Part shown: in pieces, positions 1,774 through 55,452 of the stretch
Layout of the letters: every line of letters starts with the position of its first letter
Position numbering within the stretch: position 1 is the stretch's first letter
DNA from: Nitrospirota bacterium
GTDB lineage: Bacteria > Nitrospirota > Thermodesulfovibrionia > Thermodesulfovibrionales > SM23-35
NCBI GenBank assembly: GCA_040756135.1
Contig: JBFLZS010000002.1
Coordinates: 15,949-79,948 of the forward strand
Direction: 5' to 3'
Length of the DNA stretch: 64,000 nucleotides
Notes under the pieces: generated by a model
Database searches by the model: none
What the model was told of the DNA's origin: nothing
What the model saw: the letters and a program-made list of their open reading frames with translations, nothing else
Translations under genes and position numbers: made by a program

Positions 1774-1954
1774 TATTAACGGTCTCATAAAAGAATTCAT
1801 ATTTTTCAGAAAATCTCCCCTCGCCCCTCTTTACCAAAGAGGGGTAATCCCCCTTATCAAAGGGGGATAAAGGGGGTTATTCCTCCCTTTGGCAAAGGGA
1901 GGTTAGGAGGGATTTTATGATAATCATGTGCATACTATTTCGAGAATGTTGATA
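1774..1954. mobile_element. MITE-like composite repeat, copy 1 (imperfect TIRs enclosing three G/C hairpin units)
   Basis: The left end is tattaacggtctca. Inside are hairpins 1824-1844 (cccctcttt acc aaagagggg), 1849-1866 and 1882-1902. The right end is degenerate (cgagaatgttgata). It is near-identical over most of its length to 55303-55452. Confidence 0.5.
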
Positions 1955-1973
1955 TCATTCTGAAAAACCTTCT

Positions 1974-2579
1974 TTATTTTTTAGTCCAGTTTCCATTGGC
2001 ATCTTGAATCCACCATCCCTTTTTGGCAGAATCTCGCCTTAATGCTGCAAATTGCTCCACTGCCTGGGGCATTACCCGTTTTAGATTTTCCTCATTTTCC
2101 GGCACCCTGTTTATCCTTATAATTGCCCTTGCCATTCCCTTCATAACAGTCTTTCTATTTTCATTCTCTTGGTCAACAAGCTTTTTATCATTGTCATTTA
2201 ATGTTCCTTCTCTGACGACAAGTAATCCGTCTTTTGCCTCTCCTACTATTCTGCTGTCTCTCAGCCTGTCTATATCAGCAATCCGGGCTCCCATTTCCTT
2301 GTACGCATTGACTACATCCGGCATCTTTTTTATGATTTCTGAAATCTTGTCTGCAAGTCCTGCTTCCTGAGCGTATGCAGATGAAATAAACTCGAATCTT
2401 ATTGAACTCTCCGGTTTGCCTTCAGGTTTTTCTTCGCCAGGTTTCATCAGCTCCTTTTCAAGATTTTTATATGCCTCTTTTACATCTTTTTCTGGAAAAT
2501 AGATATTCACAGTAATAACAGCACATGATACAACAACGAAAAGCAATGCTACAACAATAAGCTTAAACTTTTTTTTCAT
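1974..2579 (-). CDS. YnbE-like lipoprotein fused to a YdbL (DUF1318) domain
   Basis: It has a signal/lipobox (..VVVSC) followed by AVITVNIYFPEKDVKEAYKNLEKEL, which resembles the short lipoprotein YnbE. The C-terminal half (GEAKDGLLVV..LVDQENENRKTVMKGMARA) resembles YdbL/DUF1318. It lies directly downstream of a YdbH-like gene, as in the E. coli ydbH-ynbE-ydbL operon. Confidence 0.6.
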   Translation of the reverse strand: MKKKFKLIVVALLFVVVSCAVITVNIYFPEKDVKEAYKNLEKELMKPGEEKPEGKPESSIRFEFISSAYAQEAGLADKISEIIKKMPDVVNAYKEMGARIADIDRLRDSRIVGEAKDGLLVVREGTLNDNDKKLVDQENENRKTVMKGMARAIIRINRVPENEENLKRVMPQAVEQFAALRRDSAKKGWWIQDANGNWTKK

Positions 2580-2594
2580 CTCCTTACCCTCCCT

Positions 2595-4982
2595 TTATTT
2601 TTTTTCTTTTGCCCTCTGGGCGGCCTCTGTTAGTGTCCACATAAGGTGATCTATTGCAATCTTGTTGTTAAAAGGCGCAACCTTTACAGAAAGGTCTTTT
2701 ATGCCAATAAGGTTTCTATTCGATATCTCAAGTTCTTTAAAGATGACAAAACCATCCTGTAGATAAAGACTCATTATCCCTTTGTCAAAACTTCTGTCCC
2801 CCAGGTATGTTTTTAAAGAAGGGCCTCCAACCTTCTGTAAAAATTCTTTACTTATCTTTGTTTTTTCATCTTTAGTACTATATGTCCAGAAATCTGCCTT
2901 GCCAATAAGTTTGGAAATACCAACTCCGGTTCCCTTTATATTTGCAACACCGTCTACTTTACCCGAAATATATCCTTTAATAGGCTCAATTCCTTCGCAC
3001 AGTTTTGCGAGACTTAGTCCCTTCAAAAGAATACCGACCCTGTATTTAAGCCCATCGGAAATGTTGATGATGCCAGAGCCATTGAGTCTTCCTCCGAATA
3101 TGTTAGCACTAAAATGATTTATATTCAAAACACGGCCTTTCTGATTAAGCCAGATAACTATATTTTCTAAAAGCTCGAAACCATAACTGAAAGAACCGAT
3201 TGTTATCCTGCTGAATCCGCTATCTGAAGTCTTTTGCGAATAATATTTAGTCATGTTATCGAATTCAGAATGTTCGAAAGAAGGTATTTTAATTATTTCC
3301 TGCTTATAATCGGATTCAGCGTATGCAACAGGGATTATGCCGTTAACCGGTCCTGCAAAATACTCATTGTTTTCTCCGGAAAGACTAAAGTTTTTTAACC
3401 TTAGCTCCCCATTTACACTCAATTTACTGTTACTATAATCAATTGAAAAATCTGAGGATAAATAGCCATCAAGGCCTGCATAAAGGAGGCTGTCAGGGAA
3501 TATATTCCAGAAGGAATCTCTGATGTCAGTCGCTTTAACTTCCGGGAGCTTTGCGTTTAATTTTATAGACCTATCTTTATTCATAAATCCTTTCACTGTT
3601 CCTGAAATAATTGCGGATATGCTGCCGGCACCTGCGTCCGACTTAAGCTCAAGGACATCCCCTGCAAATTTAATTTCTGAATCTAAAAAAATATTCTTTA
3701 GGATATTCCTTTTACTTTTTATCTCCAAAACAGAAATACCTTTTGCTTTTAACAATGCCTTTCCATCCAGTGAGTTTAAAGAATTCAAAGTGCCATTAAA
3801 AGCAGCACTCTTAATATTTCCTGATATGCTGTAAGGGATTTCTGAAATTTTTGATGATAGAACATATAAATGACTTGCATCTATATTCTGTGCCGTTAGA
3901 CTGATTTTTACGGGAAAAGGCCCTTCCGAGGTTTTACCATCTAAATTGAGTTTTATTATGCCGCCAAAAACATCAGCCTGAGGTATCTCCGCATAAAAAT
4001 CTTTTCCGTTGAATTTCCCTTTTCCTGCTATTGATGCAGGACTGATGCCATGGAATTGAATCTTTCCTGTTGAAAAAGCAAAGTCGCCTGATAAAGATCC
4101 TATACCTTTATTTAAATCCATAAGGGTATTTATCGATAGATTGATCTCAACGGGCTTATCGAGAAGATATTTCTCAGTCTTCAGGATTTTTAAAACAGCT
4201 TCTGCCCTGACAGATATCTCCCCGCTGGATGGAAGTTTTATATTTACATTTGCTTTTTCAATCCCGGCGTTTATTTTGTGTTTGTTTAAAAGATATTTAA
4301 ATGCAGGAAAAGGGTAATCATCTGATGAAACAGAGATGTTCAGTTTTTTTGGTTCATCCTTCAGATATGCCCATCCATTAATCTTTATTTTGTTTTCACC
4401 TGCATATGAAGTATGACCATTAATTAAAGTTTTTGTCCCGGGCTCGGAAGAAAGGTTTTTCAGATGCAGATTGATATTATCATTTCCGTATCTTTTGTCT
4501 TTATTAAAATCAAAGATACCCGAGTCAATATCAAATTCATCTATCTGGTATTTGATTGTTGGTTTTCTTTTAAAAAGTTGCAAAAGTTTATCAGAAACAT
4601 TCAATCTGCCGTTTCTATCTTTTATCAAGATAAACTCGGGTGAAAAAACGGTTATGTTTCTAAAATAAAATCTTCCTTTGAAAAAATCACTGAACTTCAT
4701 TTTAAGGTAAAGCCTTTTTATACGAAGAAGCTGTCCTGAATCAAACCCTTGAGGGTTCATGATACAAATATCGTAAATGTTTATTCCTGCTGATGGACTG
4801 AATGACAAATCCCCGATATCAACCTTCTGTCCGATCATCAAAGTTGACTCAGCAGAGATCTTTGTAATCAATGTTTTTTTAAAATCAAGGTAACCAAAAT
4901 ATGCGAGAGAAATAAAAAAAAGAATAAAGATTATCAGTATTACAGAGGTTATTTTTAAGATTCTTTTGATATTTATTGGCAT
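2595..4982 (-). CDS. AsmA-like / YdbH-family intermembrane lipid-transport protein
   Basis: 795-aa ORF with an N-terminal TM anchor. The rest is long, beta-rich and repetitive. The C-terminal region is of the type seen in YdbH. Synteny with the YnbE/YdbL-like gene supports the call. Confidence 0.5.
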   Translation of the reverse strand: MPINIKRILKITSVILIIFILFFISLAYFGYLDFKKTLITKISAESTLMIGQKVDIGDLSFSPSAGINIYDICIMNPQGFDSGQLLRIKRLYLKMKFSDFFKGRFYFRNITVFSPEFILIKDRNGRLNVSDKLLQLFKRKPTIKYQIDEFDIDSGIFDFNKDKRYGNDNINLHLKNLSSEPGTKTLINGHTSYAGENKIKINGWAYLKDEPKKLNISVSSDDYPFPAFKYLLNKHKINAGIEKANVNIKLPSSGEISVRAEAVLKILKTEKYLLDKPVEINLSINTLMDLNKGIGSLSGDFAFSTGKIQFHGISPASIAGKGKFNGKDFYAEIPQADVFGGIIKLNLDGKTSEGPFPVKISLTAQNIDASHLYVLSSKISEIPYSISGNIKSAAFNGTLNSLNSLDGKALLKAKGISVLEIKSKRNILKNIFLDSEIKFAGDVLELKSDAGAGSISAIISGTVKGFMNKDRSIKLNAKLPEVKATDIRDSFWNIFPDSLLYAGLDGYLSSDFSIDYSNSKLSVNGELRLKNFSLSGENNEYFAGPVNGIIPVAYAESDYKQEIIKIPSFEHSEFDNMTKYYSQKTSDSGFSRITIGSFSYGFELLENIVIWLNQKGRVLNINHFSANIFGGRLNGSGIINISDGLKYRVGILLKGLSLAKLCEGIEPIKGYISGKVDGVANIKGTGVGISKLIGKADFWTYSTKDEKTKISKEFLQKVGGPSLKTYLGDRSFDKGIMSLYLQDGFVIFKELEISNRNLIGIKDLSVKVAPFNNKIAIDHLMWTLTEAAQRAKEKK

Positions 4983-5046
4983 AATTTATATTACCTGAAG
5001 TAATACGAGAGAGCCTAATCAAACAGAGCGGGAAAGACATAGTATT

Positions 5047-5376
5047 TTATTTTATATCATCAATACCAATAATATTTGCTTCAAGGAGATTTCCTAACAA
5101 CGTAAAACCACCGCACGGTAGTGATTTTTCTTTTTGCTGAATAAAATCACAATCACTTTTGTAAAAAGGACAGGAAATGCACATATTTTGTCTGAGTTTT
5201 TCTTCGGTCACAGGATTGAGCTTCTTCTCAGACGTATCAAAAGTGATTTTCTTTCCCCTTTCTATTAATGTTTCTACTACAAGAAAGCCCATACAGGCAA
5301 GTTCATCATTTTTTGCTGGTTTGTAGAAAGGGCAGAAATTTAGGCACAGCCTTTCATCTAAATTTATCTCATTCAT
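5047..5376 (-). CDS. Cys-rich hypothetical protein with internal duplication
   Basis: 109-aa ORF with two copies of a C-x2-3-CPFYK..C(M/G)GF..L(I/L)E module: CLNFCPFYKPAKNDELACMGF and CISCPFYKSDCDF..PCGGF. It is divergent from the rSAM/SPASM gene. Confidence 0.5.
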   Translation of the reverse strand: MNEINLDERLCLNFCPFYKPAKNDELACMGFLVVETLIERGKKITFDTSEKKLNPVTEEKLRQNMCISCPFYKSDCDFIQQKEKSLPCGGFTLLGNLLEANIIGIDDIK

Positions 5377-5514
5377 AAAAATACTCCCAACCTGTTATTC
5401 CGAACCCCTTCTCTTATTCTGAAGAGGCGTAATCCCTACAGAATCTTCAGGTAAAGATCAGAAAGGGTTCTCGTTATAATGATAACAAAAATCAGGTGTG
5501 TTGTATAATTAAAA

Positions 5515-6717
5515 ATGAGATATTTTCTTGATAGAGACGCTGTCCTTAAATTGATTGAGAAGCCTTCTGTTTATCATATTGCAAAGGATGACCTTTATGA
5601 ACTTGACAGCGATTCCTTTGAATTTCTTAATAATTGTGCATCTGAGAGCGGGTGTAACGTTAAAGAAAATGATTTTATTGATTATTGTCTGAAAGAAGGA
5701 ATATTAACTGTGGATAAGGTCTCGGTAAAACGCCCCCCTCTGATAAAGTCTCCTCATCCCTCCCTTAGGTATCTTGAGCTGCAAATAACGAACAAGTGCA
5801 ATCTGAAATGTAAACACTGTTATATTAATCCCCCCTCACCCCCCTTTAGTAAAGGGGGGAAGGGGGGATTTGAAAAGTTATCCTCCAAACAATCCTTTAG
5901 CGAGCTTTCAATAAACCAGATAAGAGATATTTTGAAAGAATTCGAGGAAATGCAGGGATTAAGAGTTCTTATCACAGGGGGTGAGCCGCTAATTCACAAA
6001 GGATTTAAAGAGATAAATAAAATGCTTCCCGAATTCTTTGTAAGGAAGGTCTTGTTTACAAACGGATTGTTATTAAATAAAAAGGTGCTTAAAAAACTTA
6101 ATGTTAACGAGATCCAGATTAGCGTAGACGGGCTTGAAAATGCACATGACTCACTGAGAGGCAAGGGAACCTTTAAGAGGGCAATAGAGGCTGTTAAACT
6201 TGCTATTGACTCTAATTTTGAGGTCTCTATCTCAACAATGGTTCATTCTAAAAATCTTGGGGAATTTGACGAGATGGAAAGATTATTTAAGGACATGGGA
6301 ATAAAGAACTGGACTGTTGACATCCCATGTATAACCGGGAGGCTACAAGAGAATCCTGAATTTCAGATAAGCCCTGAACAGGGAGGAAAATATCTCAGGT
6401 ATGGTTATGGTAACGGGCTTCATGCAGGCGCATCTGGTTATGCATGCGGGTTATATCTAATGGCTGTGATGGCTGATGGCAGGGTTTCAAAATGTACTTT
6501 TTATTCAGATAGCTCTGTTGGTAGGATTGAAGACGGACTTAGAGAATGCTGGCAGAGGATAAAACCTATAAGGCTTGACGAATTAAAATGTGATTGTAAA
6601 TATATCGAATCATGTAGAGGAGGCTGCAGATACAGGGCACAATTGCTTGGTGACCCTTTTGGCAAAGATCTTTACAAATGCAATTTTTATGGTATAATTA
6701 AAAATACGAATTATTGA
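5515..6717 (+). CDS. Radical SAM/SPASM-domain peptide-maturase-like enzyme with RRE/PqqD-like N-terminal domain
   Basis: It has the CNLKCKHCY (CxxxCxxC) motif, a C-terminal Cys-rich SPASM region (CDCKYIESCRGGCRYRA), and about 85 aa N-terminal with a ..DDLYELDSDSFEFLNNC pattern. It carries an in-frame repeat insertion at 5827-5871. Confidence 0.85.
   Translation: MRYFLDRDAVLKLIEKPSVYHIAKDDLYELDSDSFEFLNNCASESGCNVKENDFIDYCLKEGILTVDKVSVKRPPLIKSPHPSLRYLELQITNKCNLKCKHCYINPPSPPFSKGGKGGFEKLSSKQSFSELSINQIRDILKEFEEMQGLRVLITGGEPLIHKGFKEINKMLPEFFVRKVLFTNGLLLNKKVLKKLNVNEIQISVDGLENAHDSLRGKGTFKRAIEAVKLAIDSNFEVSISTMVHSKNLGEFDEMERLFKDMGIKNWTVDIPCITGRLQENPEFQISPEQGGKYLRYGYGNGLHAGASGYACGLYLMAVMADGRVSKCTFYSDSSVGRIEDGLRECWQRIKPIRLDELKCDCKYIESCRGGCRYRAQLLGDPFGKDLYKCNFYGIIKNTNY
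5827..5871. repeat. G/C palindromic 'KGG' repeat inserted in frame in the rSAM CDS
   Basis: The sequence aatcccccctcacccccctttagtaaaggggggaaggggggatt is a nested hairpin. It encodes NPPSPPFSKGGKGGF immediately after the CxxxCxxC motif. Confidence 0.8.
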
Positions 6718-7168: not shown

Positions 7169-7300
7169 AATCCTCACCTCCTTACAATTAATTTTATGAA
7201 ATATCTTCCCCAAATTCCCTTTAAAGGGAGGGGAGGAAGGCATAATTCAAAATGCGTTATATTATATAGAAAATCGCTGAAATTTGCTATTACTATTTTA

Positions 7301-12159: not shown

Positions 12160-13155
12160 TCAGACCCTCTTCCATCTTCTATGGATCCAGAGCCATTCAG
12201 AGGGATGGGCACGTATGTATTCTTCAATGAAATGTGAGAATTTTTTTGTATCCGCCAGTACAGCACTTTCTATATCGCCATTTTTTGATAATTCTACCTC
12301 TGGATAAATTTTTATCCTGTGGCCTCCATCAGTCCTGTGTATGAATACAGGCAGGACTGCGGCACCTGTCTTTCTTGCTATAAGGGCAGGCATTTTTGTT
12401 GTCCATGCACCCCTGCCTAAAAAATCTATCACATAGCCTTCATCAGGGATAACAGACTGGTCTATCAATATGCCTACAGAGCCATTATTCTTAAGTATTT
12501 GAATTATGGGTTTTAATGCCTTTTGCTTGTAAATTACTCTGTTACCATATTTCTGTCTTACATTTTCAATAAATTTATTAACATAAGGATTATTAATCGG
12601 TCTTGCAACAATAGCAGCATCTCCAAGCTTTACAGATGTAGCGATTGCCATTAACTCCCAGTTTCCACAGTGGCCTGTTAAGAATAAAATTCCTTTACCT
12701 TTAGATTTGGCCTGATCGAAGTTTTCAATGCCCTCGATATCAACGGAACTTATTATTTTTTCACCATACCCGTAATAGATTTTTATGATCTCTACAAGAG
12801 ACCTGCCAAGATTCTTAAAGGTTTCCCTTGCAATACCCTCCGCTGAATAATTAATCCCCCCATGCCCCCCTTTAAAATCCCCCTCTAATCCCCCTTTAAT
12901 AAAGGGGGACTGAGGGGGATTATCCCTTTTCCAAAGGGGGGTGTGGGGGGATTCAGGGGGATTTGACTCCTGACTCTTGAGTAATGACTCTTTGATATTC
13001 TCAATAGCAATCCTTCTCCTGCTTCCCCATAGATAAAAAACCAAAAGGCCGAGTAACTCCCCGGCCTTCATTGACCACTTAAATGGCAGGATTGCTAACG
13101 GTATGGACAGAATTATAAATAGACAAACCTCAAACAGCCATACCGCTTTTTTCAT
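12160..13155 (-). CDS. Lysophospholipid / lipid A (LpxL/HtrB-like) acyltransferase
   Basis: It has an N-terminal TM helix and the HX4(D/E) motif LTGHCGNWELM. The family C-terminus is HPSEWLWIHRRWK. It contains a 110-nt triple repeat insertion. Confidence 0.8.
   Translation of the reverse strand: MKKAVWLFEVCLFIILSIPLAILPFKWSMKAGELLGLLVFYLWGSRRRIAIENIKESLLKSQESNPPESPHTPLWKRDNPPQSPFIKGGLEGDFKGGHGGINYSAEGIARETFKNLGRSLVEIIKIYYGYGEKIISSVDIEGIENFDQAKSKGKGILFLTGHCGNWELMAIATSVKLGDAAIVARPINNPYVNKFIENVRQKYGNRVIYKQKALKPIIQILKNNGSVGILIDQSVIPDEGYVIDFLGRGAWTTKMPALIARKTGAAVLPVFIHRTDGGHRIKIYPEVELSKNGDIESAVLADTKKFSHFIEEYIRAHPSEWLWIHRRWKRV
12853..12963. repeat. Three tandem G/C palindromic 'KGG' units inside the acyltransferase CDS
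   Basis: It spans aatcccccccatgcccccctttaaaatccccctctaatccccctttaataaagggggactgagggggatt...ccaaaggggggtgtggggggattcagggggatt. It is translated in frame as NPPESPHTPLWKRDNPPQSPFIKGGLEGDFKGGHGGI. Confidence 0.8.
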
Positions 13156-15646: not shown

Positions 15647-15825
15647 GTCATTCCCCGACTCGATGGGGGGAATCCATGGTTCGACATCCTTCGACAAACT
15701 CAGGATGACATTGTCACTCTGAGCCTGCCGAAGAGTCACCATGACAATGTCACCCTGAGCCTGTCGAAGGGTGGATTGTCCGGTCAAGCGTTCGACTGAG
15801 CTCACGCCGAAGGCCGGACAATGAC
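15647..15825. repeat. Intergenic composite repeat (GTCATTCC...ATGAC type with about 35-nt tandem units)
   Basis: It contains gtcattccccgactcgatggggggaat, then the tandem units gacattgtcactctgagcctgccgaagag and gacaatgtcaccctgagcctgtcgaaggg. The 66-aa track ORF here is repeat-derived. Confidence 0.6.
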
Positions 15826-21434: not shown

Positions 21435-22386
21435 ATGTAACCCCCCTTTTTGTAAATTGCATCCCTCATATTTACACACTCCTTGCCTTCTCAAGGCGGT
21501 TCTTGACGAGCTCGCAGACGGTCCAATAGACCTCGTTCCTTTCGTCTTCTGTCAGGCCGAGGATGTCGAAGACAATATCATGAGGGCCTTGCGGTCAGCG
21601 AGAGGATTAGGTTTCTGCTCACGGATTGGACGGGCGGGATTGATGCCACATTCCTCGAAAATAGATTTAAGGTCGCGTTTTTCTAAGAGCAAGTGATTGG
21701 TCTTTACTAAGGAAGGATCGAGCGTCAAAAGATTATTTACCTCATAAACCATTAAACTTTTCGCTCCCTCTCCTAAGCCCCCTCTTGATAATATTTCAGA
21801 TATAAGGCCAAACAATGTGGAATTTAACAGAGTTCTGTAATCTTACATCGCCATTTGCATAATATAGTCTGCAGTCACATAGCATATGATTATCAGACAA
21901 GAAGGTACCGAGCCTGTCGTTAGTTTCTTTTACCCAAAACATATTGCCCTTTAAATCAGGACAATCCCACCACCTTTGTCGTCCTATGCAGGTCGGTCTC
22001 TTATGAAATCCCTGTTTTTCTCCCCATTCAATATACCTCAGTGCATTTGTTCCTTTAATATCCTTCTTTTCGTCATGACACATAAAGATTTTGAATTTCA
22101 GATCTTTTGGTCTTATCCGAATCCCCTTACATTCTCTCGGGCTTTTTATTACAGGTTTTAGAAATTCATCTTCTATTTTCCATTCCTTGATACCTTTGTT
22201 ATCAAGGTAAAAAAAATTCATTTGCGCCTGAAGTAATACCACGCCTTACCTCTGCAATATCCCCAAGTCTGACGAGCTTGCCTTTTCCCTTCTCAAGGAT
22301 CGTAAAGAATATATCCGGCGCTCTAAGGTATTTCCCGCCCCACTTTTGAACATGACAAAGCGGGCTGAGTCTTGAAGGGCAGGCCA

Positions 22387-22422
22387 AATCCCCCCTTACC
22401 CCCTTTGCTAAAGGGGGGATTT
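22387..22422. repeat. 'KGG' palindromic repeat inside the methyltransferase pseudogene
   Basis: The sequence is aatccccccttaccccctttgctaaaggggggattt. It reads as IPPLAKGVRGDL. Confidence 0.75.
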
Positions 22423-23113
22423 TTGAGATATCTCCAAACATCTCAGTCTGTTCTTGCCTTTTTAGCGTTTCAAGAGACTGAATTTCTTTTTGAAGGGTTA
22501 CAATCCTGTCATCCAATATCTCGCCGAATATCCTGATCTCTTCCTGAAGAAGGGACTTGTCGCTTTTGAATTTGGCAGTAGGGTCATTGTTATAGTATTT
22601 CTCTTTCTCTGTCTTAAGGGCTAAAAGTTTTCTTTTAAGAGAAGGAGAAAGCCGACTATCTCTTATATGGAGACTCACTCCGCCAACCTCCTGTACGAGG
22701 GAATCACCTACACGTAACCTTAGGTTAAGGTTGGGAAGGAGGGGAAAGAGTTTTCTTTGTTCGTAAGGGATATCTTCTTCAATGATGAGCTGTAACCAGA
22801 GCCTTAACTCTGCCGAGTGTGTTGCCCAGGGCATGACATCCACACCATAAAGGGAATTTCCTATGATTTTTTTCTTTAGTTCGAACTCTGTCATTTCCCT
22901 CTGGATATGGCGATAGGTGAGCCTATAAAGTTCCACCAGCACACGAAGCATCCCCACAAGGAAAGCACCGCTACCACAAGCTGGATCCACCACTGTAAGG
23001 TTATCAAGAACCTCTTCCAGACGATACCAAAGGTTCTTTTTTGTAATGTAATCCTCAACGTCTTTTTTATCTTCATCAAATAGCAGTCTATATATCCATT
23101 CCTTTGAAAGCTC

Positions 23114-23208
23114 AAATCCCCCCTCGCCCCCCTTTGCTAAAGGGGGGATATCGGGAGGAGACTTTTCTAAAGGGGGAAACACACCCCTATCCCCTCTTGA
23201 TAGAGGGG
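23114..23208. repeat. Composite 'KGG' palindromic repeats inside the methyltransferase pseudogene
   Basis: It spans aaatcccccctcgcccccctttgctaaaggggggatatcggg...cccctatcccctcttgatagagggg. It reads as SPLSRGDRGVFPPLEKSPPDIPPLAKGGEGGFE. Confidence 0.75.
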
Positions 23209-24585
23209 AACTTAAATGGTTGCTGAGGTACTCCGCCAGAGACCTCCTGCACATAAAGTCAACCTCGATTGTCGGAGTATAGAAGATGCCGAGATCCTGC
23301 CTCTCGTATATCTCCTCTGCTACATTGGAGAGGGATTCATAAACATAACCTATCATCTGTGGGTCTACCGCAACCTCAACATCCAAAGGAAGGTCTTCAC
23401 GAATGGTAAAGTTATATTTCTCAAAGAAGTTAAGAACCTTTTCGAAGAGGCTATCGTTTATATGAAACGGTAGTTCGTCCAGTTCGTTTCTCTGAAACAG
23501 GCCGCCGTTAAGGTAGGGGGTTACGGCAAGGATCTTCTTAATATCCTGAGAGTGATAAGGAGGATGACTGTATTTATTATTGAACGCCTCAAGAAAGAGT
23601 ATTCTCAACCAATTTTCATAAAAGGTATTATCTTTGGCATCGCCCTTTCTTTTTTCTTCTTTATATCGTTCCCAGTACCACTTGATAAACTTCGGGGCAT
23701 CATTAAGCCATCTCTTCCTTGCAATAAAGTAAAGGAACATAAGCCTGTTAAGGAATTGCTGGGACAGTTCATGGGCATTCTTGACTGGGATCTTCTGTTT
23801 CTCAAAGGTTCTCCTTAGCTCAAAAAATGCATCTGTATAATCCTCAAAGAACTCATCTGTAACCTTCTCTACACTAAAGGCATCCTTCCACCTCTTCCAG
23901 ATGTCCCGCCAGTTCTCTTCATCTCCAGTAAGGGCAATGTTTGTGATAGTAAGAAGGTCTGTATGATAGGGATGTTCCCTGTCGAAGATAAGCTTTGTCA
24001 GCTTAAGTTTATGCTTGCCCTCTTCAACACGTTCGAATTCAGGGAAGACAAAGGTATATTCCTTGTAATCAGAGGTAAGGAGGAGAAGAAATCGGAGATA
24101 TTTGTCTGAGAAGCGCTTCGTGAGATAGCGGACAAAGGGGATTGAAAGGTTCTTGACTACTATGAGGAATATCTGTAGCTTACCGTCATAATTAAAGACT
24201 GTGTAGATATCTTTAACTTTCTCCTTTTCCTCTTTTGCAAACTCGAATTCTTCAATCTTTCTCTTATAGGACGGATCGAGGATCTTGTCTTTTTGATATC
24301 CAAGCCCACGAAAAAGCTCATAAATCTTTTCAGGAGAATCTGCCTCTGGGATGAAATTTTGAACATATTTTGTTATGTCCATGTCTTACCTTTATCATTT
24401 ATCCAAAAGAAGAAGAATATATCAATATATTTTGATTTAGAACAGATACATTTAAGCAATATTTTGCACGACGGAATTAGTTTACCATCTCAACTGCAGA
24501 ATATCAAAATGAAATAAGTTGAGCAACGCTGGAGGGGGCCCATTAAAATGCCCTTTGTATCAACTTAGTAAATTGTGTAAACTTT

Positions 24586-36653: not shown

Positions 36654-39194
36654 GTGAATCTCTCACTTTTCCAGAAACCGAGCAGATATATAAACAAAGA
36701 GATAAATGCTATTTACAAGGACGCACCTGTAAAGGTTGCCCTCGCGTTTCCTGACATCTACGAAATCGGGATGTCTCATCTCGGGCTCAAAATCCTTTAC
36801 AAAATAATAAATGACCTTCCGTTTGCTTCCGCCGAGAGGGTATTTTCACCATGGCTTGACCTCGAGGCCGAGATGAAGGCAAAAAGAATATCTCTTTCAT
36901 CCCTCGAATCAAACCGTCCATTGAGAGACTTTGATATCGTAGGTTTTAGTCTCCAGTACGAACTTTCATATACTACAGTCCTTAATATGCTCTATCTCGG
37001 TGGAATCCCATTGAGGTCCGAAGAAAGAAATATTTCATCTTTTAATCGCCACTACCCGCTTGTTATTGCTGGTGGGCCTTGCACTGTTAATCCACTACCA
37101 ATGTCTCCTTTTATTGACGCATTCCTGATTGGTGACGGAGAAGAAGCTATTAAGGAGATACTGAATACATTTTACCTATGGAAGACAGGTGGAGATAGTA
37201 AAAGGGAATCCCTTCTTCAAGCCCTCTCAAAGATTGAAGGGATGTATGTGCCAAATAATCCCCCCTCCCCCCCTTTAGAAAAGGGGTGTAAGGGGGGATT
37301 TGAAAAAAGGGGGATTGGGGGAGTTAAGAGGCGATTTATAAAATCCCTCGATGACATACCTTATCCTGATAATCCCGTTGTTCCATACGCCTCGATCATC
37401 CATGACAGGGTAAACATTGAGGTTTCAAGGGGATGCTCGATGGGTTGCAGGTTCTGTCAGGCAGGTATGATTTACAGGCCGGTTCGTGAAAGAAGCCCTG
37501 AAAAAGCCTTAGAGATCGCAGAAAAATCCCTGAAAAACACAGGCTACGAGGAGGTTGCATTCACATCCCTGAGTGCCGGGGACTATAGCTGTCTTTTACA
37601 GGTTGTAAGGGAATTTAATAAAAGGTTTGGAAACAAGAAGATCGCCCTCTCACTTCCTTCCCTTAGAGTCGCATCTGTAAATCCCGAACTTTTGAGAGAG
37701 ATACGTGCTGTTAGGAAAACAGGCTTTACAATTGCACCCGAGGCAGGAACTGACAGGCTCAGAAGGGTAATCAATAAAGACTTTGAGGAAGAGGACTATG
37801 AAAGGGCTCTCAGGACACTGTTCGAAGAAGGCTGGCATAATCTCAAACTATATTTTATGATAGGGCTTCCAACAGAGACTGAAGAAGATATAGAGTCAAT
37901 CCATAAAATGGCTATGAAAGCACTTAAAATTTCAAAACAGTATACGAAAAGGTTTGTCAATATAAACATAGGTATTTCCCCCTTTGTTCCAAAACCACAC
38001 ACGCCTTTTCAATGGTATGGACAGATCTCTTCTGCGGAGCTTAAAAGAAAAAAGCACTATATTAAAGACGTTCTGACAAAAAAAGGGTTAAAGATTAAGG
38101 GGCATAATGTAGAGATGAGCCTTCTTGAGGCTGCTTTCGCCCGCGGAGATGAAAGACTTGCATCACTTATCGAAAGGGCCTGGTCTCTCGGGTGCAGGCT
38201 TGATGCATGGTCAGAAGCCTTTGATTTTAAAAAATGGGAAACCGCAATGAATCTTACAGGTACAGATGTAACAGACTTTTCAAAAAAGACTTTCGAAGAT
38301 TCGGATGTCCTACCCTGGGAGAAAATAGATATAGGGATAACAAAAGAATTTCTCTGGAAGGAATACCAGAGGGCATTATCAGGGAATATAACAACAGACT
38401 GCAGGAAAACCTGTCACAATTGTGGACTCTCTTGTAATAAAAACACAGAGAAGGTCAGAAGATCAGAAAATCAGAAGTTAAGCACTTCATCTCATCCTCT
38501 TAACTTCTCAACTTCTCAACCTCTTCGTTTTAAGCCTGTAAAGATAAGGGTTGAGTTCACCAAGACAGGCAGATTGAGATATCTTTCACACCTCGAACTT
38601 ATTACCGTGTTGCATAGGGCGATCAGGAGGGCAGGATTTCCTTTAGAATATTCAATGGGCTTTCATCCATTTCCAAGGATATCATTCGGCCCTCCACTTG
38701 GTGTAGGGATTGCAGGGCTTAGTGAATATTTTGATATGGAAATAATTCCGCCTTTTGATTTAGTCGTAAACAGAAAAAAGATAAATAATATACTGCCAGA
38801 AGGGATTTGTGTAAAGGACATGTCATCTGTATCAGAAAAGGCTGAATCTCTATGTAGCTTTATAACAAGGTATGAATATGAAATAAGAGGTGGGAATTCG
38901 TTTAACGTCTATAGGTTTTTATCAGAAAAAGAGATAAATTTTAAAAGGGAACAATATTTTATAAACCTCAGGGGTATGGTAGAAGAAGCTAAGCAAATTG
39001 AGGAGGATACAACAAAAATAATAGTAGTAGATCAAGGAGATACAAAGGTTAGGCTTGGTGAACTTCTTCCTGAGATATTTAATGTCCCTTTGGAAAGCCT
39101 TGACATAACAAGGGTAGCCCTTTATGGATGGAATGGTGGCTGGGTAAAACCCCTTAATAATTGCAAAATGCAGATTATAGATTGCAGACAGTAA
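36654..39194 (+). CDS. B12-binding-like radical SAM protein fused to a DUF2344 domain (TIGR03960 + TIGR03936 type)
   Basis: It has a GTG start and KPSRYINKEIN N-terminal. The rSAM motif is SRGCSMGCRFCQAG. The C-terminal module has RYLSHLELITVLHRAIRRAG. It lies upstream of rng, as is common. It contains repeat insertions. Confidence 0.8.
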   Translation: MNLSLFQKPSRYINKEINAIYKDAPVKVALAFPDIYEIGMSHLGLKILYKIINDLPFASAERVFSPWLDLEAEMKAKRISLSSLESNRPLRDFDIVGFSLQYELSYTTVLNMLYLGGIPLRSEERNISSFNRHYPLVIAGGPCTVNPLPMSPFIDAFLIGDGEEAIKEILNTFYLWKTGGDSKRESLLQALSKIEGMYVPNNPPSPPLEKGCKGGFEKRGIGGVKRRFIKSLDDIPYPDNPVVPYASIIHDRVNIEVSRGCSMGCRFCQAGMIYRPVRERSPEKALEIAEKSLKNTGYEEVAFTSLSAGDYSCLLQVVREFNKRFGNKKIALSLPSLRVASVNPELLREIRAVRKTGFTIAPEAGTDRLRRVINKDFEEEDYERALRTLFEEGWHNLKLYFMIGLPTETEEDIESIHKMAMKALKISKQYTKRFVNINIGISPFVPKPHTPFQWYGQISSAELKRKKHYIKDVLTKKGLKIKGHNVEMSLLEAAFARGDERLASLIERAWSLGCRLDAWSEAFDFKKWETAMNLTGTDVTDFSKKTFEDSDVLPWEKIDIGITKEFLWKEYQRALSGNITTDCRKTCHNCGLSCNKNTEKVRRSENQKLSTSSHPLNFSTSQPLRFKPVKIRVEFTKTGRLRYLSHLELITVLHRAIRRAGFPLEYSMGFHPFPRISFGPPLGVGIAGLSEYFDMEIIPPFDLVVNRKKINNILPEGICVKDMSSVSEKAESLCSFITRYEYEIRGGNSFNVYRFLSEKEINFKREQYFINLRGMVEEAKQIEEDTTKIIVVDQGDTKVRLGELLPEIFNVPLESLDITRVALYGWNGGWVKPLNNCKMQIIDCRQ
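37257..37322. repeat. 'KGG' palindromic repeat in frame in the rSAM CDS
   Basis: It spans aatccccccctccccccctttagaaaaggggtgtaaggggggatttgaaaaaagggggattggggg. It encodes NNPPSPPLEKGCKGGFEKRGIGG. Confidence 0.8.
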
Positions 39195-47199: not shown

Positions 47200-47288
47200 A
47201 TTCCCCCTTAGCGAAGGGGGATTAAGGGGATTGTGCCTTTTTCAGCCTTTTTACAACCCTCTCGCCCCCTTTTTTAAGGGGGAATTTC
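47200..47288. repeat. Intergenic 'KGG'-type palindromic repeats
   Basis: It contains attcccccttagcgaagggggattaagggga ... ccctctcgcccccttttttaagggggaattt. Confidence 0.7.
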
Positions 47289-49558: not shown

Positions 49559-50088
49559 TAGCTATCCAACCGTTCCCGATGCCTCATATTGCTCAACTCG
49601 CTCACTTGTTCATTGGTGATTTTTAGACGTTCACCGATAGTCCATGCCAGTTTAAACAGAATTTTGCTCCCGAGTCCTGGATTACGGTTAATGATATCAA
49701 GAAGTTCAGGCTTAAAGAAACATAATATCTTACATGGTGTTTTACTAACAGCCGTTGCACTTCTTGGTGAATCATCAAGAAGGGCTAATTCCCCAAAAAA
49801 ATCCCCTTCACTTAGCTCTGCCAGCATATGTCTTTCAGGTCCACATACTATTTCTACGGTGCCTTTTACGATAATGTACATCCCGAGCCCGGCATCACCC
49901 TGATTGAAGATTATCTCATCTCTTTTATATTCCCTCTGGTATAAGATACGTTTAACTGTTCTTAGTTCACGATCTTTCAAATCCTGGAAGATAGGGATCT
50001 TTAAGAGAATATTATCTATTTCATCCGCTTCATTTTGGCGAGACTTAAAGATATTTTCCCAGAGTTTATTCACCTGAAATATCCTCAT
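49558..50088 (-). CDS. Cyclic-nucleotide-binding domain protein
   Basis: The cNMP-binding fold shows ..GDFFGELALLDDSPRSATAV... I prefer the start at the ATG at 50088 (MRIFQV). The longer track ORF begins inside a repeat. Confidence 0.7.
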   Translation of the reverse strand: MRIFQVNKLWENIFKSRQNEADEIDNILLKIPIFQDLKDRELRTVKRILYQREYKRDEIIFNQGDAGLGMYIIVKGTVEIVCGPERHMLAELSEGDFFGELALLDDSPRSATAVSKTPCKILCFFKPELLDIINRNPGLGSKILFKLAWTIGERLKITNEQVSELSNMRHRERLDS

Positions 50089-50090
50089 CA

Positions 50091-50136
50091 AATCCCCCTT
50101 CACCCCCCCTTTTCTAAAGGGGGGAGTGGGGGGATT
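50091..50136. repeat. 'KGG' palindromic repeat at the 5' end/leader of the cNMP-binding gene
   Basis: The sequence is aatcccccttcaccccccttttctaaaggggggagtggggggatt. Confidence 0.75.
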
Positions 50137-50394
50137 ACTATTTTCATGTCCCTTTGTGAGCAAGATTCATGAGGGTTCAGGTACATTTACAGATATATAA
50201 TCACATTTCGTTTGCTTCTTTCAATAATATTTCAAATTTGCCGAGAGTATTGTCATGCTGAATTTATTTCAGCATCTCGTATTTTCACTACGCTATGTCA
50301 ATAATAAGTTTCCAATATATCAGTCTAACTTTTTGTAGTATAATGAAACGCTCTTAAGAAATTTTATCAGTTAATTTTGAATAAAGGGGGGGGT

Positions 50395-51045: not shown

Positions 51046-51060
51046 AAAAGTTCTGTTTTT

Positions 51061-51142
51061 GTCATTCCTGCGAAAGCAGGAATCCAGTGTATTGTAGAAG
51101 ATAAATCTCAAGTTCTGGATTCCGGGTCAAGCCCGGAATGAC
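51061..51142. repeat. GTCATTCC...GGAATGAC intergenic repeat element
   Basis: The termini gtcattcc and ggaatgac are inverted. Inner hairpins are cctgcgaaagcagg and ccgggtcaagcccgg. Related elements lie at 15647-15825 and 28721-28793. Confidence 0.6.
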
Positions 51143-51191
51143 ATTTAAGAATAAGTCTTTTTACTAATTTCTTAGTAACAGGAGTAAATAA

Positions 51192-51401: not shown

Positions 51402-51420
51402 AAAACATTCAGAGGAATCA

Positions 51421-51496
51421 TGGTGGGCAGTCGCAGAATCGAACTGCGGACACGAGGCTTTTCAGGCCTCTGCTCTACCGACTGAGCTAACTGCCC
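51421..51496 (-). tRNA. tRNA-Phe (GAA)
   Basis: The reverse complement folds by eye as GGGCAGT TA GCTC AGTCGGTA GAGC A GAGGC CTGAAAA GCCTC GTGTC CGCAG TTCGATT CTGCG ACTGCCC A CCA. This gives a cloverleaf with anticodon GAA and an encoded CCA. Confidence 0.9.
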
Positions 51497-51736
51497 ACAA
51501 CTTTCAAGCTTTAAATTACACTTTTAACTTCCATACTGTCAAGGTATGCACTGGACTATAAAGATATCCGCACCTTTTAGGGCGCAAGAGGGTAGAATTG
51601 CAGCAAGTTGTTTTTCCAGAATTGATTATATGCAAATTGTTATGATATTCTTTTCAAAATCACTTCTTTTAATCCAGGCAGTAGGTCTTATAATGTACAA
51701 CCGACTGATGCCGGCCATTAAATAAGAGAGGTGCCG

Positions 51737-53083
51737 ATGTCGTATCGAGCTTGGTTTCAATGCATCAACCAGGAGTGCCGGGCGAGCTATCCGCTCAACT
51801 CAATCCTCTATCGCTGCACTACGTGCGGCTCGCTTCTGGAAGTGCAGCACGACCTCCACGCCCTCTCCCTTCGCGGTCACAAGGAGTGGATTAAGCTATT
51901 CGATGATCGCTACAAGTCTACTGAATGGCCATACGGCTCCGGCGTGTGGGGTAAGAAGGAATGGGTTCTGCCTCAGATTGATAACGAAAATATCGTCTCG
52001 CTTTACGAGGGCGGCACTAACCTGTTCTGGGCCGAGCGGTTCGGCAAAATGCTCGGTCTGCAGGATCTCTGGATCAAACTCTGCGGTAATTCCCACAGCG
52101 GTTCCTTTAAGGATCTCGGCATGACAGTCCTTGTGTCTCAGGTTAAGCAGATAATCAGCGAAGGCGCGCCGATCAAGGCAGTCGTCTGTGCGTCTACCGG
52201 CGATACCTCGGCCGCACTGGCGGTTTACTGTGCTGCTGCCGGCATCCAGTCCATTGTGTTGCTGCCGAAGGGCAAAATCTCGATCGCACAGCTCGTCCAG
52301 CCGATTGCTAACGGTGCTCTGGTATTGTCGCTGGATACCGACTTCGACGGTTGTATGCGTGTCGTCCAGGAAATCACAAAGGACGAGATGTTCTACCTGG
52401 CCAATTCGATGAACTCTTTGCGTATTGAGGGTCAGAAAACCGTCGGTATTGAGATCGTCCAGCAATTCGATTGGGAAACGCCTGACGTAATCATCATTCC
52501 CGGCGGTAACCTCGGGAATGTCTCCGCGCTTGGTAGCGGCTTGCTAATGATGCGCGACCTCGGCCTGATTGCCACGCTACCGCGCATTGTTCTTGCCCAG
52601 GCCGAACGCGCCAACCCGCTTTACCGATCATATCTGAAAAACTTTGAGACCTTCGAGCCGATCGAGGCCAGGAAGACATTGGCCAGTGCCATCCAGATTG
52701 GCGATCCGATTAGTGTCGAGAAGGCCATCCGCACGCTGAAGCAGTTCAACGGGATCGTTGAGCAAGCCACGGAGCAGGAACTGGCTGATGCCGCCGCTCT
52801 CGGTGACACCACCGGCATGTTAAACTGTCCGCACACCGGCGTCGCGCTCGCAGCTCTGCTCAAGCTGCTCAAAGCCGGCAAGATTAATAAATCCGAGCGC
52901 GTCGTGATCATTTCCACGGCTCATGGGCTGAAGTTTACCGACTTCAAGGTGCGCTACCATGAGGGAACGCTGGACTTTCCCTGCCGCTTCGCCAATAAAC
53001 CGATCGAGCTGCCACCCCGGGTGGACGCGGTCAAGGAGACCCTCAAGCAAGCTTTGCAGAAGAGGAGGAACACTGATGTCTAA
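51737..53083 (+). CDS. thrC: Threonine synthase (with N-terminal zinc-ribbon)
   Basis: The PLP-Lys motif is SFKDLG. It also has ..[10 protein letters not shown].. and an N-terminal C..C...C..C ribbon. Its G+C content is markedly higher than the flanks. Confidence 0.85.
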
Positions 53084-54284
53084 GAGGTCATCAAAAACCA
53101 AGAACTGGAAGTCATCCACCCTTGCTATCCATGGCCCGGGCCGAACTCCCAAAGCCCACTATGCTGTCTCCACGCCGATCGTTCAGACCTCCAACTACTA
53201 TTTCGACTCCACTGCTGAGGTGCTGGAGTTTATGAAAGCTAAGAGTGAGGGCCGCGTTGTGCGTGAGCACGAATACGGCCGCTACGGCAACCCGACCCAG
53301 CAGGAGTGTGAACGTAAGCTTGCTGCCATCGAGGGCGCCGAGCGGGCGTTGCTTTTCTCCACCGGCATGAGCGCAGTGATCATTACGTTGTTGGCCTATA
53401 TACGCCGCAATGGCCACATCATCTTCACCAATGACTGTTATCGTCAGACTCGCGATTTTGCCACAAACCTGCTGGCAGAGTTCGGGCTGGAAGTCTCGCT
53501 GGTGGATCCGACTGCCGAGGCCATTGCCAAAGAGATCCGGCCCAACACCAACATCATCTTTACCGAATCGCCGACCAATCCCTACCTGCGCGTGCTGGAC
53601 ATTCCGGCGGTGGTAAAAGTTGCCAAACAGCACAGAGTGATGACCATCATTGATGCCACGCTGGCCACACCGTACAACATCAAACCACTGGACATGGGCG
53701 TGGATATCGTCATCCACTCCGCTACAAAGTACCTCGGCGGTCACAACGACCTGCTGGCCGGTGCTGCCCTCGGCAAACACGATCTGCTGAATGACCTCAA
53801 CCGCATGCAGAGGATGATTGGTGCTACACCTGGCCCGCTGTCTTGTTTTCTGCTAGAACGCGGGCTGAAGACCTTTGCGCTCCGCATGGAGCACCACAAC
53901 CGCGCCGGGCTGGCTATCGCCCGTATACTGGAGTCGCATCCGAAAATCGAAAAAATCTGGTATCCGGGCTTAGAGTCGCACCCGGATCACCAAGTAGCGA
54001 TCCAGCAGATGCGCGGCTTTGGCAGCGTGATCACCTTTCTTCTTAAAGGCGGCGACAAGGAGACGTGCAAGTTCATTGATTCGCTGGAGCTATTCTTGAT
54101 AACGCCCAGTCTCGGTGGCAGCGAGAGCCTGGTGACGCAAATGGCAACGATGTCATTCTTTGATTACCCGGAGGATCACCGCCGCTCGATCGGCATGGTG
54201 GACAACCTGGTCCGCATCGCGCTCGGCCTGGAGGACGTGGAGGATCTTATCGCCGACCTTAAGCAGGCATTAGACAAGATATGA
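53076..54284 (+). CDS. Cys/Met-metabolism PLP enzyme (cystathionine gamma-synthase / beta-lyase family)
   Basis: It has MSKRS..TLAIHG.., YGRYGNPT and PLP-Lys [11 protein letters not shown]. An RBS (AGAGGAGGA) precedes the ATG at 53076. It overlaps thrC by 8 nt. High G+C. Confidence 0.85.
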
Positions 54285-54303
54285 ACCTCACAGGCGGAAC
54301 CAT

Positions 54304-54657
54304 TTAAACCTCAAATGCGTCCTTGATATGCTCGATCTCCTTCTCTCCATTATCCATGCAAAAGATGCTGAGGACATCAAATCTTATAGGAAATTCCTTC
54401 CCCTGATTTTTTAAGTAGAATAAGGCCAAATTTTTTAGTTTCTGTTTCTTCCTCTTGTTTACTGCTTCAAATGGATAGCCAAAAGAATCATCTGTTCTTG
54501 TCTTTACTTCAATGAATACTAAAGTATCACCGTCTTTTGCAATAATATCAATCTCACCAATAGGGGTCTTATAGTTTCGCGTAATTATCTTATAGCCTTT
54601 TTTATTTTTTAGGAACCTGACCGCAAGTTCTTCGCCCTCAGTACCAAGGGCTTTCAT
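54304..54657 (-). CDS. yraN: YraN-family (UPF0102) endonuclease-like protein
   Basis: It has GEELAVRFLKNKGYKI..RNYKTPIGEIDIIAKDGDTLVFIEVKTR. Confidence 0.85.
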   Translation of the reverse strand: MKALGTEGEELAVRFLKNKKGYKIITRNYKTPIGEIDIIAKDGDTLVFIEVKTRTDDSFGYPFEAVNKRKKQKLKNLALFYLKNQGKEFPIRFDVLSIFCMDNGEKEIEHIKDAFEV

Positions 54658-55072
54658 CTCCTTCGAGCCTCCTGATGAGTTTTGGTATCCCCTCTATATC
54701 ACTTATATCCTTCTGACAGAGCATCCTTAAAAGCACCCTGAACGAAGAGAATTCTTCCCATTGTCCTCTGAGATGCTTAGATATGGCCTTATTAAGACTC
54801 TCGCCCTTCTCATCCCAATCGAGCATAATGATAACCCTGTGAAATCTCTCTGTAATATCCGTGCAAAAGTCATATAGGCTTTTCCCATTATGAAGTGTAA
54901 TTATCTCGCCAACAAGTCCGAGCCTTCTTAAGGCGGCTGCATCCTTTCTGCCTTCTACAATAACAGGGATTTTTGTATTTATCTCGCACAAGGCTTCGAT
55001 AACCCCCTTCAAGCGTTCAGCCCTCTCGGTATCTTTTATCGAAGGGATTCCCCTCTGTCTACTAATTGACAT
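54638..55072 (-). CDS. Toprim-domain protein (small primase-like / RNase M5-like)
   Basis: It has IPVIVEGRKDAAALRRLG (Toprim Glu) and ..IIMLDWDEKG.. (the DxD-like acidic motif). It overlaps yraN by 20 nt. Confidence 0.5.
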   Translation of the reverse strand: MSISRQRGIPSIKDTERAERLKGVIEALCEINTKIPVIVEGRKDAAALRRLGLVGEIITLHNGKSLYDFCTDITERFHRVIIMLDWDEKGESLNKAISKHLRGQWEEFSSFRVLLRMLCQKDISDIEGIPKLIRRLEGDESPWY

Positions 55073-55302
55073 ACTAAACCTCTTTTAAATCTCTTAGATT
55101 ATCCTAACATATTTGCTGTATTTATAGTAAACGACAAAAAGAAGTTCACATGATGGAGTAAGTTTATTAATGTCAAAATAGATGCCTCCATTTTGTGATT
55201 TGTGTTACTACAATTCCTGTCTTTATAATATAAAATATAATGGTCATATTCTGTTCTGTAATACCATGACTAATATGAATACATTTTATATATGGTATGA
55301 GT

Positions 55303-55452
55303 TATTAACGGTCTCAAAATAGAATTCATATTATTCGGAAAATCTCCCCTCGCCCCTCTTTGCCAAAGAGGGGTATGATTCCTCCCTTTGGCAAAGGGAG
55401 GTTAGGAGGGATTTTATAAATCAATGTGCTTACTATTATGAGACTGTTAATA
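55303..55452. mobile_element. MITE-like composite repeat, copy 2
   Basis: The TIRs are tattaacggtctca (55303-55316) and tgagactgttaata (55439-55452), matching at 13 of 14 positions. Two inner G/C hairpins are present. It is near-identical to 1774-1954 apart from one missing hairpin unit. Confidence 0.55.

Follow-up and report, generated by a model that had tools for sequence, protein, structure and literature searches.

Rickettsia palindromic elements (RPEs), in the account given in PMC10969869, are repeats of ~100 to 150 bp, grouped as RPE-1 to RPE-10, which occur only in Rickettsia and have no known cognate gene (Ogata et al. 2000, via PMC10969869). Repetitive extragenic palindromic (REP) sequences lie outside genes by definition, and REPIN-RAYT systems, in which the cognate gene encodes a RAYT transposase, have been described as lineage-specific and vertically inherited. 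Here we examine a short palindrome, the KGG repeat, in a window of 64,000 nucleotides (nt; the whole stretch of DNA analysed) from a Nitrospirota bacterium (contig JBFLZS010000002.1, positions 15,949-79,948, forward strand). Orthologue comparisons identify copies of this repeat as in-frame insertions in enzyme genes, and in other genomes its half-units bracket small genes of the family DUF559. We regard the repeat as a REP/REPIN-like non-autonomous palindromic mobile element with DUF559, not RAYT, as its cognate gene, a reading to which we assign a probability of about 0.6.

The repeat family is real and far exceeds chance expectation. It is G/C-rich in a window of ~40% G+C, where the strict core CCCCCCTTT-N2-6-AAAGGGGGG was matched three times and the nested pattern AATCCCCC-N2-6-CCCCCTTT-N2-5-AAAGGGGG eight times, each against 0.00 expected. 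A repeat search of the window returned families of 7 to 9 copies at positions where a preliminary description of this DNA had placed a recurring G/C-rich palindrome, a claim that is hereby borne out. A covariance model, R1, was trained solely on the flanks of DUF559 genes, all outside the window; with filters off, it recovered at least 17 half-units at nine loci in the 64 kb (1811-1915, 5826-5871, 12875-12964, 22386-22422, 23114-23208, 37256-37301, 47203-47282, 50090-50137 and 55340-55414). Scores on the window copies ranged from 38 to 54 bits (up to E = 2e-18), the copies at 47203-47282 scoring lower (22 and 17.5 bits). A further copy proposed at 7207-7240 had to be dropped, there being no R1 match at E ≤ 10 with filters off and only a weak CCCTTTAAAGGG palindrome at that position. 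An Rfam scan of the window at gathering thresholds found tRNA-Phe alone and no family matching the repeat, which is thus not a described RNA family, and in the papers searched, for the sequence motifs as well as for Nitrospirae repeats and DUF559, neither the element nor a link between DUF559 and a repeat was described.

The basic building block is a 34-nt half-unit consisting of an arm and a hairpin, with the consensus AAATCCCCCCT-nn-CCCCCCTTT-nnn-AAAGGGGGG; derived from 52 half-units, it reads AAATCCCCCCTnnCCCCCCTTTnnnAAAGGGGGG. Two inverted half-units with one hairpin in common form a compact unit of 45 nt, whereas in longer forms the arms are separated by two or three hairpins. Both compact and composite inverted doublets are present in the window, and their terminal inverted repeats were confirmed. 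Each unit folds into a single nested hairpin (-16 to -21 kcal/mol, z-scores -3.5 to -5.5), and sequence variants preserve the pairing (CCCCTC/GAGGGG, CCTCCC/GGGAGG). Across 140 distinct copies, 99.1% of 1173 cells are paired in the hairpin, with 31 compensatory C-G to T-A cells at four pair positions, a level reached in none of 500 shuffles. Synthesis of the compact unit by fold-back of one half-unit was considered and rejected, because the two linkers are not complementary (TCA versus AA); the same asymmetry is found again in other Nitrospirota copies, which together indicates that the compact unit spreads as a unit. Within the unit, C-runs encode Pro, G-runs Gly and TTT/AAA Phe/Lys, and frame 0 of either strand reads N-P-P-x-P-P-F-x-K-G-G-x-G-G-F. 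Because the unit is a 45-nt palindrome, both orientations yield the same flexible peptide, as had been proposed from the letters alone.

Three intact genes in the window carry copies of the repeat. A compact 45-nt unit at 5826-5871 lies in a radical SAM (rSAM)/SPASM gene (5515-6717, plus strand; R1 matches at 5826-5859(+), 43 bits, and 5839-5871(-), 48 bits), and its predicted peptide NPPSPPFSKGGKGGF comes directly behind the CxxxCxxC motif. Among 120 orthologues, the segment behind this motif spans 10 to 71 residues, with a KGG-type peptide in 38, a short empty form in 55 (e.g. YISNKSFSEL) and unrelated repeat-derived peptides in the remainder, such as ...LPQPLPSREG...RERVRVRG. In the TIGR03960 gene (36654-39194, plus strand), a compact unit at 37256-37301 (R1 matches at 37256-37286(+) and 37268-37301(-)), with the predicted translation NNPPSPPLEKGCKGGFEKRGIGG, is followed by a degenerate G-rich tail. 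The whole insert (37256-37326) lies in the linker between the Radical_SAM_N2 and Radical_SAM domains (Pfam limits 44-200 and 255-419). At this site, between YVP and KRRFI, 28 of 120 orthologues carry a KGG-type peptide and six are empty; the site is otherwise filled by other palindrome-derived peptides and is hypervariable. A second linker site in the same protein, at residues 594-629, behaves in the same way (KGG-type in 15 of 120). The third gene, which encodes an LpxL-like acyltransferase (12160-13155, minus strand), contains a cluster of half-units at 12850-12964, matched by R1 at 12875-12964. It comprises a C-arm stub, one compact unit (12875-12922) and, at 12924-12964, another hairpin with G-arm. 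The predicted product of this cluster, NPPESPHTPLWKRDNPPQSPFIKGGLEGDFKGGHGGI, accounts for ~41 extra residues in all, and the 41-residue segment is missing from all 16 aligned homologues.

An AsmA-like gene provides a fourth case of insertion polymorphism, a relative (L120) having a 45-nt copy that both the window and another relative (L121) lack. The KGG peptide coincides every time with the nucleotide palindrome, and the same inserts are present in independent JGI, ENA and NCBI assemblies. On these sequence comparisons, the rSAM/SPASM, TIGR03960 and LpxL-like genes carry genuine in-frame insertions of the repeat, in agreement with the preliminary description, which had proposed a mobile palindromic repeat within genes and had called for comparison with orthologues lacking the insert and for placement of the inserts on predicted structures. 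In the AlphaFold2 model of the rSAM/SPASM protein, residues 104-125 form a coil with a predicted local distance difference test (pLDDT) score of <50 between a strand (86-90) and a helix (133-146), the C-terminal SPASM region likewise having pLDDT <50. The model of the LpxL-like protein has a mean pLDDT of 85.9, and residues 64-101, a coil at <50 between two helices, are its only internal low-confidence coil segment and correspond to the insert; the Pfam domain Lip_A_acyltrans covers only residues 106-330 of this protein. In the predicted structures, the inserts thus sit in loops or coil segments. A 45-nt selfish palindrome appears to be tolerated in the core of essential enzymes, for example right behind a radical SAM Fe-S cluster motif, and creates hypervariable loop hot spots that are reused by different repeat families. 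Such sites can supply proteins with novelty and can also mislead annotation and alignment.

The repeat is pan-bacterial, and its interpretation as a peculiarity of one lineage had to be abandoned. A scan of species-representative genomes with a 24-base pattern, for which a rough hand calculation gives a chance expectation of ~0.1, found more than 119 stretches in genomes of many phyla, including, among the matches listed, Nitrospirota, Desulfobacterota, Beta- and Gammaproteobacteria, Omnitrophota, Ignavibacteria, Chloroflexota, Patescibacteria, Cyanobacteria, Bacteroidota, Myxococcota and others. Two arrangements were seen, one with the arms outside the hairpin or hairpins, as in the window, and one in the order hairpin, G-arm, spacer, C-arm, hairpin, which is common in Betaproteobacteria. 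Candidate in-frame copies occur in long open reading frames (ORFs) of other phyla as well. An element that remains nearly unchanged in many phyla is unusual among REP-like repeats.

A small gene was first met between repeat ends at one locus, and tblastn recovered it at five of 119 listed loci, always abutting the repeat. It belongs to DUF559 (PF04480, E = 1.7e-35), a family of Vsr-like PD-(D/E)XK nucleases in which an E-x-D-G-x-x-H motif is invariant. Unbiased clustering of the ORFs adjoining the repeat (163 sites in the 119 listed loci) returned DUF559 as the top recurrent family and, among the matches listed, the only small non-housekeeping family to recur beside the repeat; no transposase family or parent insertion sequence (IS) was present among these ORFs. 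ABC ATPases, response regulators, CooC-like ATPases and RnfC also recurred at these sites and were set aside as large families that do so by chance.

The association was recovered in the reciprocal direction. A metagenome scan with a DUF559 alignment yielded 80 loci, 65 of them with enough flanking sequence for a test, and a strict hairpin-plus-arm pattern was present upstream of 39 and downstream of 36 of these 65 genes, compared with 9/1635 and 6/1635 control windows (~0.5%). Most DUF559 genes have CCCCCCTTTnnnAAAGGGGGG-nn-GGGGGGATTT in front of them, its last letter 1 to 23 nt from the aligned start, and most have AAATCCCCCC-nn-CCCCCCTTTnnnAAAGGGGGG behind them, within ~20 nt past the aligned end. 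The half-units are thus the terminal inverted repeats of a one-gene unit of ~440 bp and constant length (415 to 471 bp). More distant DUF559 genes have the same flank architecture in other sequence (CTCTCC and C4T types), and these flank families are the ones seen as alternative inserts in the rSAM and TIGR03960 orthologues. In a close relative, Nitrospirae bacterium RIFCSPHIGHO2_02_FULL_40_19, the DUF559 unit is followed by the same long element as that at 55340-55453 of the window, and in L165 the long element of 55301-55453 comes behind a DUF559 gene. The DUF559 protein has close homologues in Nitrospinota (88% identical), Thermodesulfobacteriota (75%) and Planctomycetes (71%). One DUF559 gene occupies a single fixed position in 23 contigs of one organism, which is reminiscent of the single-copy RAYT genes in REPIN systems (PMC5581495). 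The bracketing gives DUF559, a widespread family of unknown function, a concrete candidate substrate, and suggests a second enzyme class behind REP-like repeats.

In the mechanism that we propose, DUF559 would recognise and process the hairpin-plus-arm, as RAYT transposases do for REP sequences, and transposition would follow a single-strand or hairpin route, the dispersed short elements being non-coding derivatives of the DUF559 unit. Copies that land in genes would survive only given three conditions, namely a length that keeps the frame, one of the two stop-free frames and a permissive loop or linker, and would then be translated as Pro/Gly loops, with junction-spanning peptides such as ...HCYINPPSPPFSK... 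expected. Five of the nine loci in the window lie inside genes, compared with a coding fraction of 0.87 (binomial P(≤5) = 0.02), a deficit that fits a filter removing most genic insertions.

Several observations weigh against this explanation. The 64-kb window holds no DUF559 gene, and its arms always lie outside the hairpins, whereas around DUF559 the hairpins lie outside the arms. At some DUF559 loci (L165, L173 and L176) the left and right flanks are different sequence variants, and the closest solved structure to DUF559, 3HRL, is itself uncharacterised. Three comparisons of filled and empty sites, none between near-identical pairs, showed no direct repeat, the flanks either extending the palindrome or being replaced, and in these three neither a target-site duplication nor a clean junction was definable. 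The association would be equally consistent with homing of DUF559 genes into the repeats or with their regulation by the repeats.

A broader version of the DUF559 explanation, which we offer tentatively and at somewhat less than even odds, is that a pan-bacterial super-family of hairpin + arm elements has DUF559 proteins as its cognate nucleases and co-diversifies with them, forming a second REP-type system that is separate from that of RAYT and is based on PD-(D/E)XK rather than HUH enzymes. The KGG repeat would be one branch of this super-family, and the "ERVRVRG"/CTCTCC families found at the same hot spots would be others. If this is true, Pro/Gly and other loops are routinely written into enzymes of Nitrospirota and other phyla, and a large domain of unknown function gains a role and a substrate that are open to testing.

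Two other origins are unlikely, and to much the same degree. The repeat might be a classical MITE (a miniature inverted-repeat transposable element), that is, an IS deletion derivative moved in trans by a DDE transposase (e.g. IS630-type, with a TA target), to which DUF559 is a passenger or neighbour. The terminal inverted repeats of the units and their presence/absence behaviour are as expected of a MITE, the long copies carry separate outer inverted repeats (TTATTAACGGTCTCA), and the L120 junction can be read as TA/ATCCC...GGGAT/TA. At other junctions, however, this reading fails, the right flank being TT, and a TA duplication was rejected as fitting one junction only. No direct-repeat duplication was seen in the three filled/empty comparisons, only DUF559 and no transposase family recurs beside the repeat in the 119 listed loci, and the ~440-bp DUF559 unit is too small for a transposase.

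Alternatively, DUF559 might be a homing endonuclease, free-standing and targeted to the palindrome, into which it copies its gene, with the short repeats arising or spreading by other means, for example hairpin-driven slippage, gene conversion or some unknown enzyme. The Vsr-like nucleases have been documented as a family of homing endonucleases (PMC2677866, PMC3239194), and the gene lies exactly between two half-sites whose joining would give a perfect palindrome. Betaproteobacteria have "empty" versions, with spacers of 12 to 40 nt, and DUF559 proteins are up to 88% identical between phyla. Against this, the empty forms retain a spacer instead of an intact target, and one DUF559 gene stays at a single fixed locus, in the same context, in 23 of 23 contigs of one organism, so that a comparison of this one protein across 23 contigs gave no sign of the gene itself moving. 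Homing also leaves the origin of hundreds of gene-free copies, intragenic ones included, unaccounted for.

Less probable again is that the repeat is primarily a structural or regulatory signal selected by the host (for instance a bidirectional terminator, mRNA stabiliser, protein-binding site or G-quadruplex/i-motif), with intragenic copies incidental and mobility secondary. Strong hairpins (-16 to -31 kcal/mol), pairing maintained by compensatory changes, composite copies with at least four G-runs on one strand, and copies placed right behind a stop codon (47203) or right ahead of a start codon (50090) would all suit such a function. A terminator, which was considered for the 47203 copy, does not fit the intragenic copies and conserved arms, and a host signal leaves unaccounted for the insertion polymorphism inside conserved enzymes, the nucleotide-level identity across phyla and the constant bracketing of one particular gene, nor does any Rfam family match. 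Finally, although the Pro/Gly segments occupy linkers and loops, in which sequence of low complexity is frequent, the orthologue comparisons (segment missing from 55/120 rSAM orthologues, 6/120 TIGR03960 orthologues and 16/16 LpxL homologues, with different unrelated palindromic peptides at the same sites in other lineages) refute an ancestral linker, and recurrence in independent assemblies excludes an artefact, the two outcomes that the preliminary description had named as fatal to its claim.

The remaining intragenic copies lie in an MmeI-like type IIG methyltransferase gene (21796-24382, minus strand) that a frameshift, at a T8/A8 homopolymer near 22208-22217, has split and that, in an alignment with Nostoc and Thermus homologues, is without the GNPPY motif and ~120 residues after it. 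These sequence features mark the gene as a true pseudogene, to which a sequencing error may have been added. Its ORF (22202-24382, minus strand) contains a half-unit at 23114-23150 with a variant CCCCTC-type hairpin at 23184-23208, which together give the best R1 match in the window (23114-23208; 54.2 bits, E = 2.3e-18), and a second half-unit at 22386-22422 (43.4 bits), in which C-arm and hairpin are followed directly by ATTT and which adjoins the deletion that took out motif IV. The predicted translations of the two copies are SPPDIPPLAKGGEGGF and KIPPLAKGVRGDL, and that at 23114-23208 adds residues relative to the Nostoc and Thermus homologues. Since the gene has decayed, neither copy is under frame constraint; the proposal that every copy within an ORF keeps the frame stands for the rSAM/SPASM, TIGR03960 and LpxL-like genes and has little meaning for this one.

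A compact unit at 50090-50137 (49.3 and 39.1 bits) lies in the start region of a minus-strand gene for a cNMP-binding-domain protein and stops 2 nt upstream of the ATG at 50088; the cNMP_binding Pfam domain begins at residue 77. Its position is ambiguous. If the ATG is the start, the copy is intergenic, as had been described, within the 5' untranslated region and near the ribosome-binding site; with the TTG at 50163 as the start codon, it falls within the ORF and encodes an N-terminal extension. Between two plus-strand genes, a hairpin + G-arm half-unit at 47203-47229 (22 bits, E = 4e-6) sits directly behind a stop codon and is accompanied by a bare hairpin (17.5 bits) at 47266-47282. The two remaining intergenic copies, previously delimited as 1810-1915 and 55335-55420, are members of the family and belong to a longer palindrome of 150 to 180 nt. 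At 55301-55453 this palindrome measures ~152 nt, with outer inverted repeats TTATTAACGGTCTCA and TGAGACTGTTAATAA and a core (55340-55414) that runs from C-arm and hairpin (CCCCTC) to hairpin (CCTCCC) and G-arm. The copy at 1774-1950 is 93% identical over its first part (1774-1846 to 55303-55375) and is matched by R1 at 1811-1844, 1849-1878 and 1882-1915; it holds one more hairpin unit internally (1845-1878), and its right outer repeat is degenerate. Outer repeats TTATTAACGGTCTCA / TGAGACYGTTAATAA (1774-1790, 55301-55317 / 55436-55453) enclose the composite KGG cores, define a MITE-like palindrome of ~150 nt and are common to a related Nitrospirae metagenome-assembled genome (L165, 91-107, 228-247 and 888-906).

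Other palindromes occur at the same hot spots and elsewhere in the window. A second, unrelated palindromic insert in the TIGR03960 gene (38457-38524), with 26-nt arms AGAAGATCAGAAAATCAGAAGTTAAG / CTTAACTTCTCAACTTCTCAACCTCT, encodes ...RRSENQKLSTSSHPLNFSTSQPL... in the linker ahead of the DUF2344 domain, a second hypervariable hot spot that is filled by several different repeat families in orthologues. At the insertion sites corresponding to 37250-37330 and 5820-5900, relatives carry the further peptide families FKVQSSESHPSSFIPHPSS, FSTPSLTLPHRGGGQGWEG and LPQPLPSREGK...SPLPSRERVRVRG, the last of which matches the CTCTCC/GGGTGAGGG hairpins flanking more distant DUF559 genes (L177, L195 and L201). 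An intergenic inverted repeat at 15685-15773, with 32-nt arms that are 88% complementary (CATCCTTCGACAAACTCAGGATGACATTGTCA ...), belongs to a different palindromic family.

Several loci outside the window have other arrangements. One (L109, 5200-6250 and 2400-2760) holds a tandem array with a 275-nt period, each repeat of which consists of a KGG half-unit and a 48-residue DUF559 fragment; the array adjoins a full DUF559 gene with a different flank type. A head-to-tail repeat array with a 137-nt period was found in Pseudoxanthomonas, and in Thalassocella two complete 170-nt arms-out elements are followed by a DUF559 gene and then another left end (L077 4900-5230 and L048 590-1420 for the two observations). 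Among other features of the window, two PLP-dependent enzyme genes of the PALP and Cys/Met-metabolism families (51731-54284) form a block of 56% G+C within the 40% window and may have been acquired horizontally; the tRNA-Phe gene (51421-51496) lies just upstream of this block. Two tandem paralogous T2SSE/MshEN secretion-ATPase genes (55513-57327 and 57331-59139), 82 to 91% identical over long stretches, are followed by a third, more distant ATPase gene (59142-60236).

Among described repeats, the KGG repeat resembles the small dispersed repeats (SDRs) of cyanobacteria in being very small, nested and found within genes. These repeats, which Elhai et al. are said to have described in 2008, are reportedly mobile elements of ~21 to 27 nt that nest into each other and occur within genes; we know of no transposase for them and of no reported link to DUF559. 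They reportedly differ from the KGG repeat in sequence and in being confined to cyanobacteria. Intragenic MITEs (ERIC/RU of enterobacteria, QMITE of Coxiella and those of Anabaena; PMC2759123, PMC5896051, PMC10969869) are likewise small and non-autonomous, with inverted ends and in-frame fusions. Their length of 100 to 400 bp, usual target duplications and known IS origin set them apart from the KGG repeat, for which no such duplication was seen in three filled/empty comparisons and no parent IS among the ORFs at the 119 listed loci. The Vsr-like homing endonucleases of the I-Bth0305I family (PMC2677866, PMC3239194) share with DUF559 a small PD-(D/E)XK Vsr fold and a selfish mode of existence, but reside in introns or inteins or split host genes, with no hairpin-repeat brackets and no dispersed non-coding derivatives.

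RPEs, as presented in PMC10969869, are likewise palindromic selfish repeats found in frame in unrelated housekeeping genes whose ORFs stay intact, with inserts predicted to be compatible with the protein fold. Compared with that description, and by size and composition rather than by sequence alignment, the KGG element is set apart by its 45-nt length and its G/C-richness in an AT-rich genome; it encodes a predicted Pro/Gly coil, and its pan-bacterial spread and a candidate partner gene distinguish it further. The parallel with RPEs drawn in the preliminary description holds for the in-frame outcome, whereas the closest mechanistic analogue is a REP/REPIN with a flanked cognate gene. Like the KGG repeat, REP/REPIN-RAYT systems (PMC3116915, PMC3337134, PMC5581495, PMC8266576) consist of short G/C-rich imperfect palindromes in high copy, in which the inverted doublet is the replicating unit, clusters are mosaic, no target duplication is seen (for the KGG repeat, in three filled/empty comparisons) and a single-copy cognate gene lies between inverted repeat copies (single-copy RAYT: PMC5581495). 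The flanked gene is a Vsr-like PD-(D/E)XK DUF559 nuclease here and a Y1/HUH, IS200-like RAYT there, and the KGG consensus is without the GTAG or CGTC tag found at the end of REPs (PMC3733652). In contrast to lineage-specific REPINs and extragenic REPs, the KGG repeat is nearly identical in many phyla and has five of its nine loci in the window inside ORFs. In outcome, KGG insertion parallels that of RPEs; in architecture, the element parallels REP/REPIN-RAYT systems.

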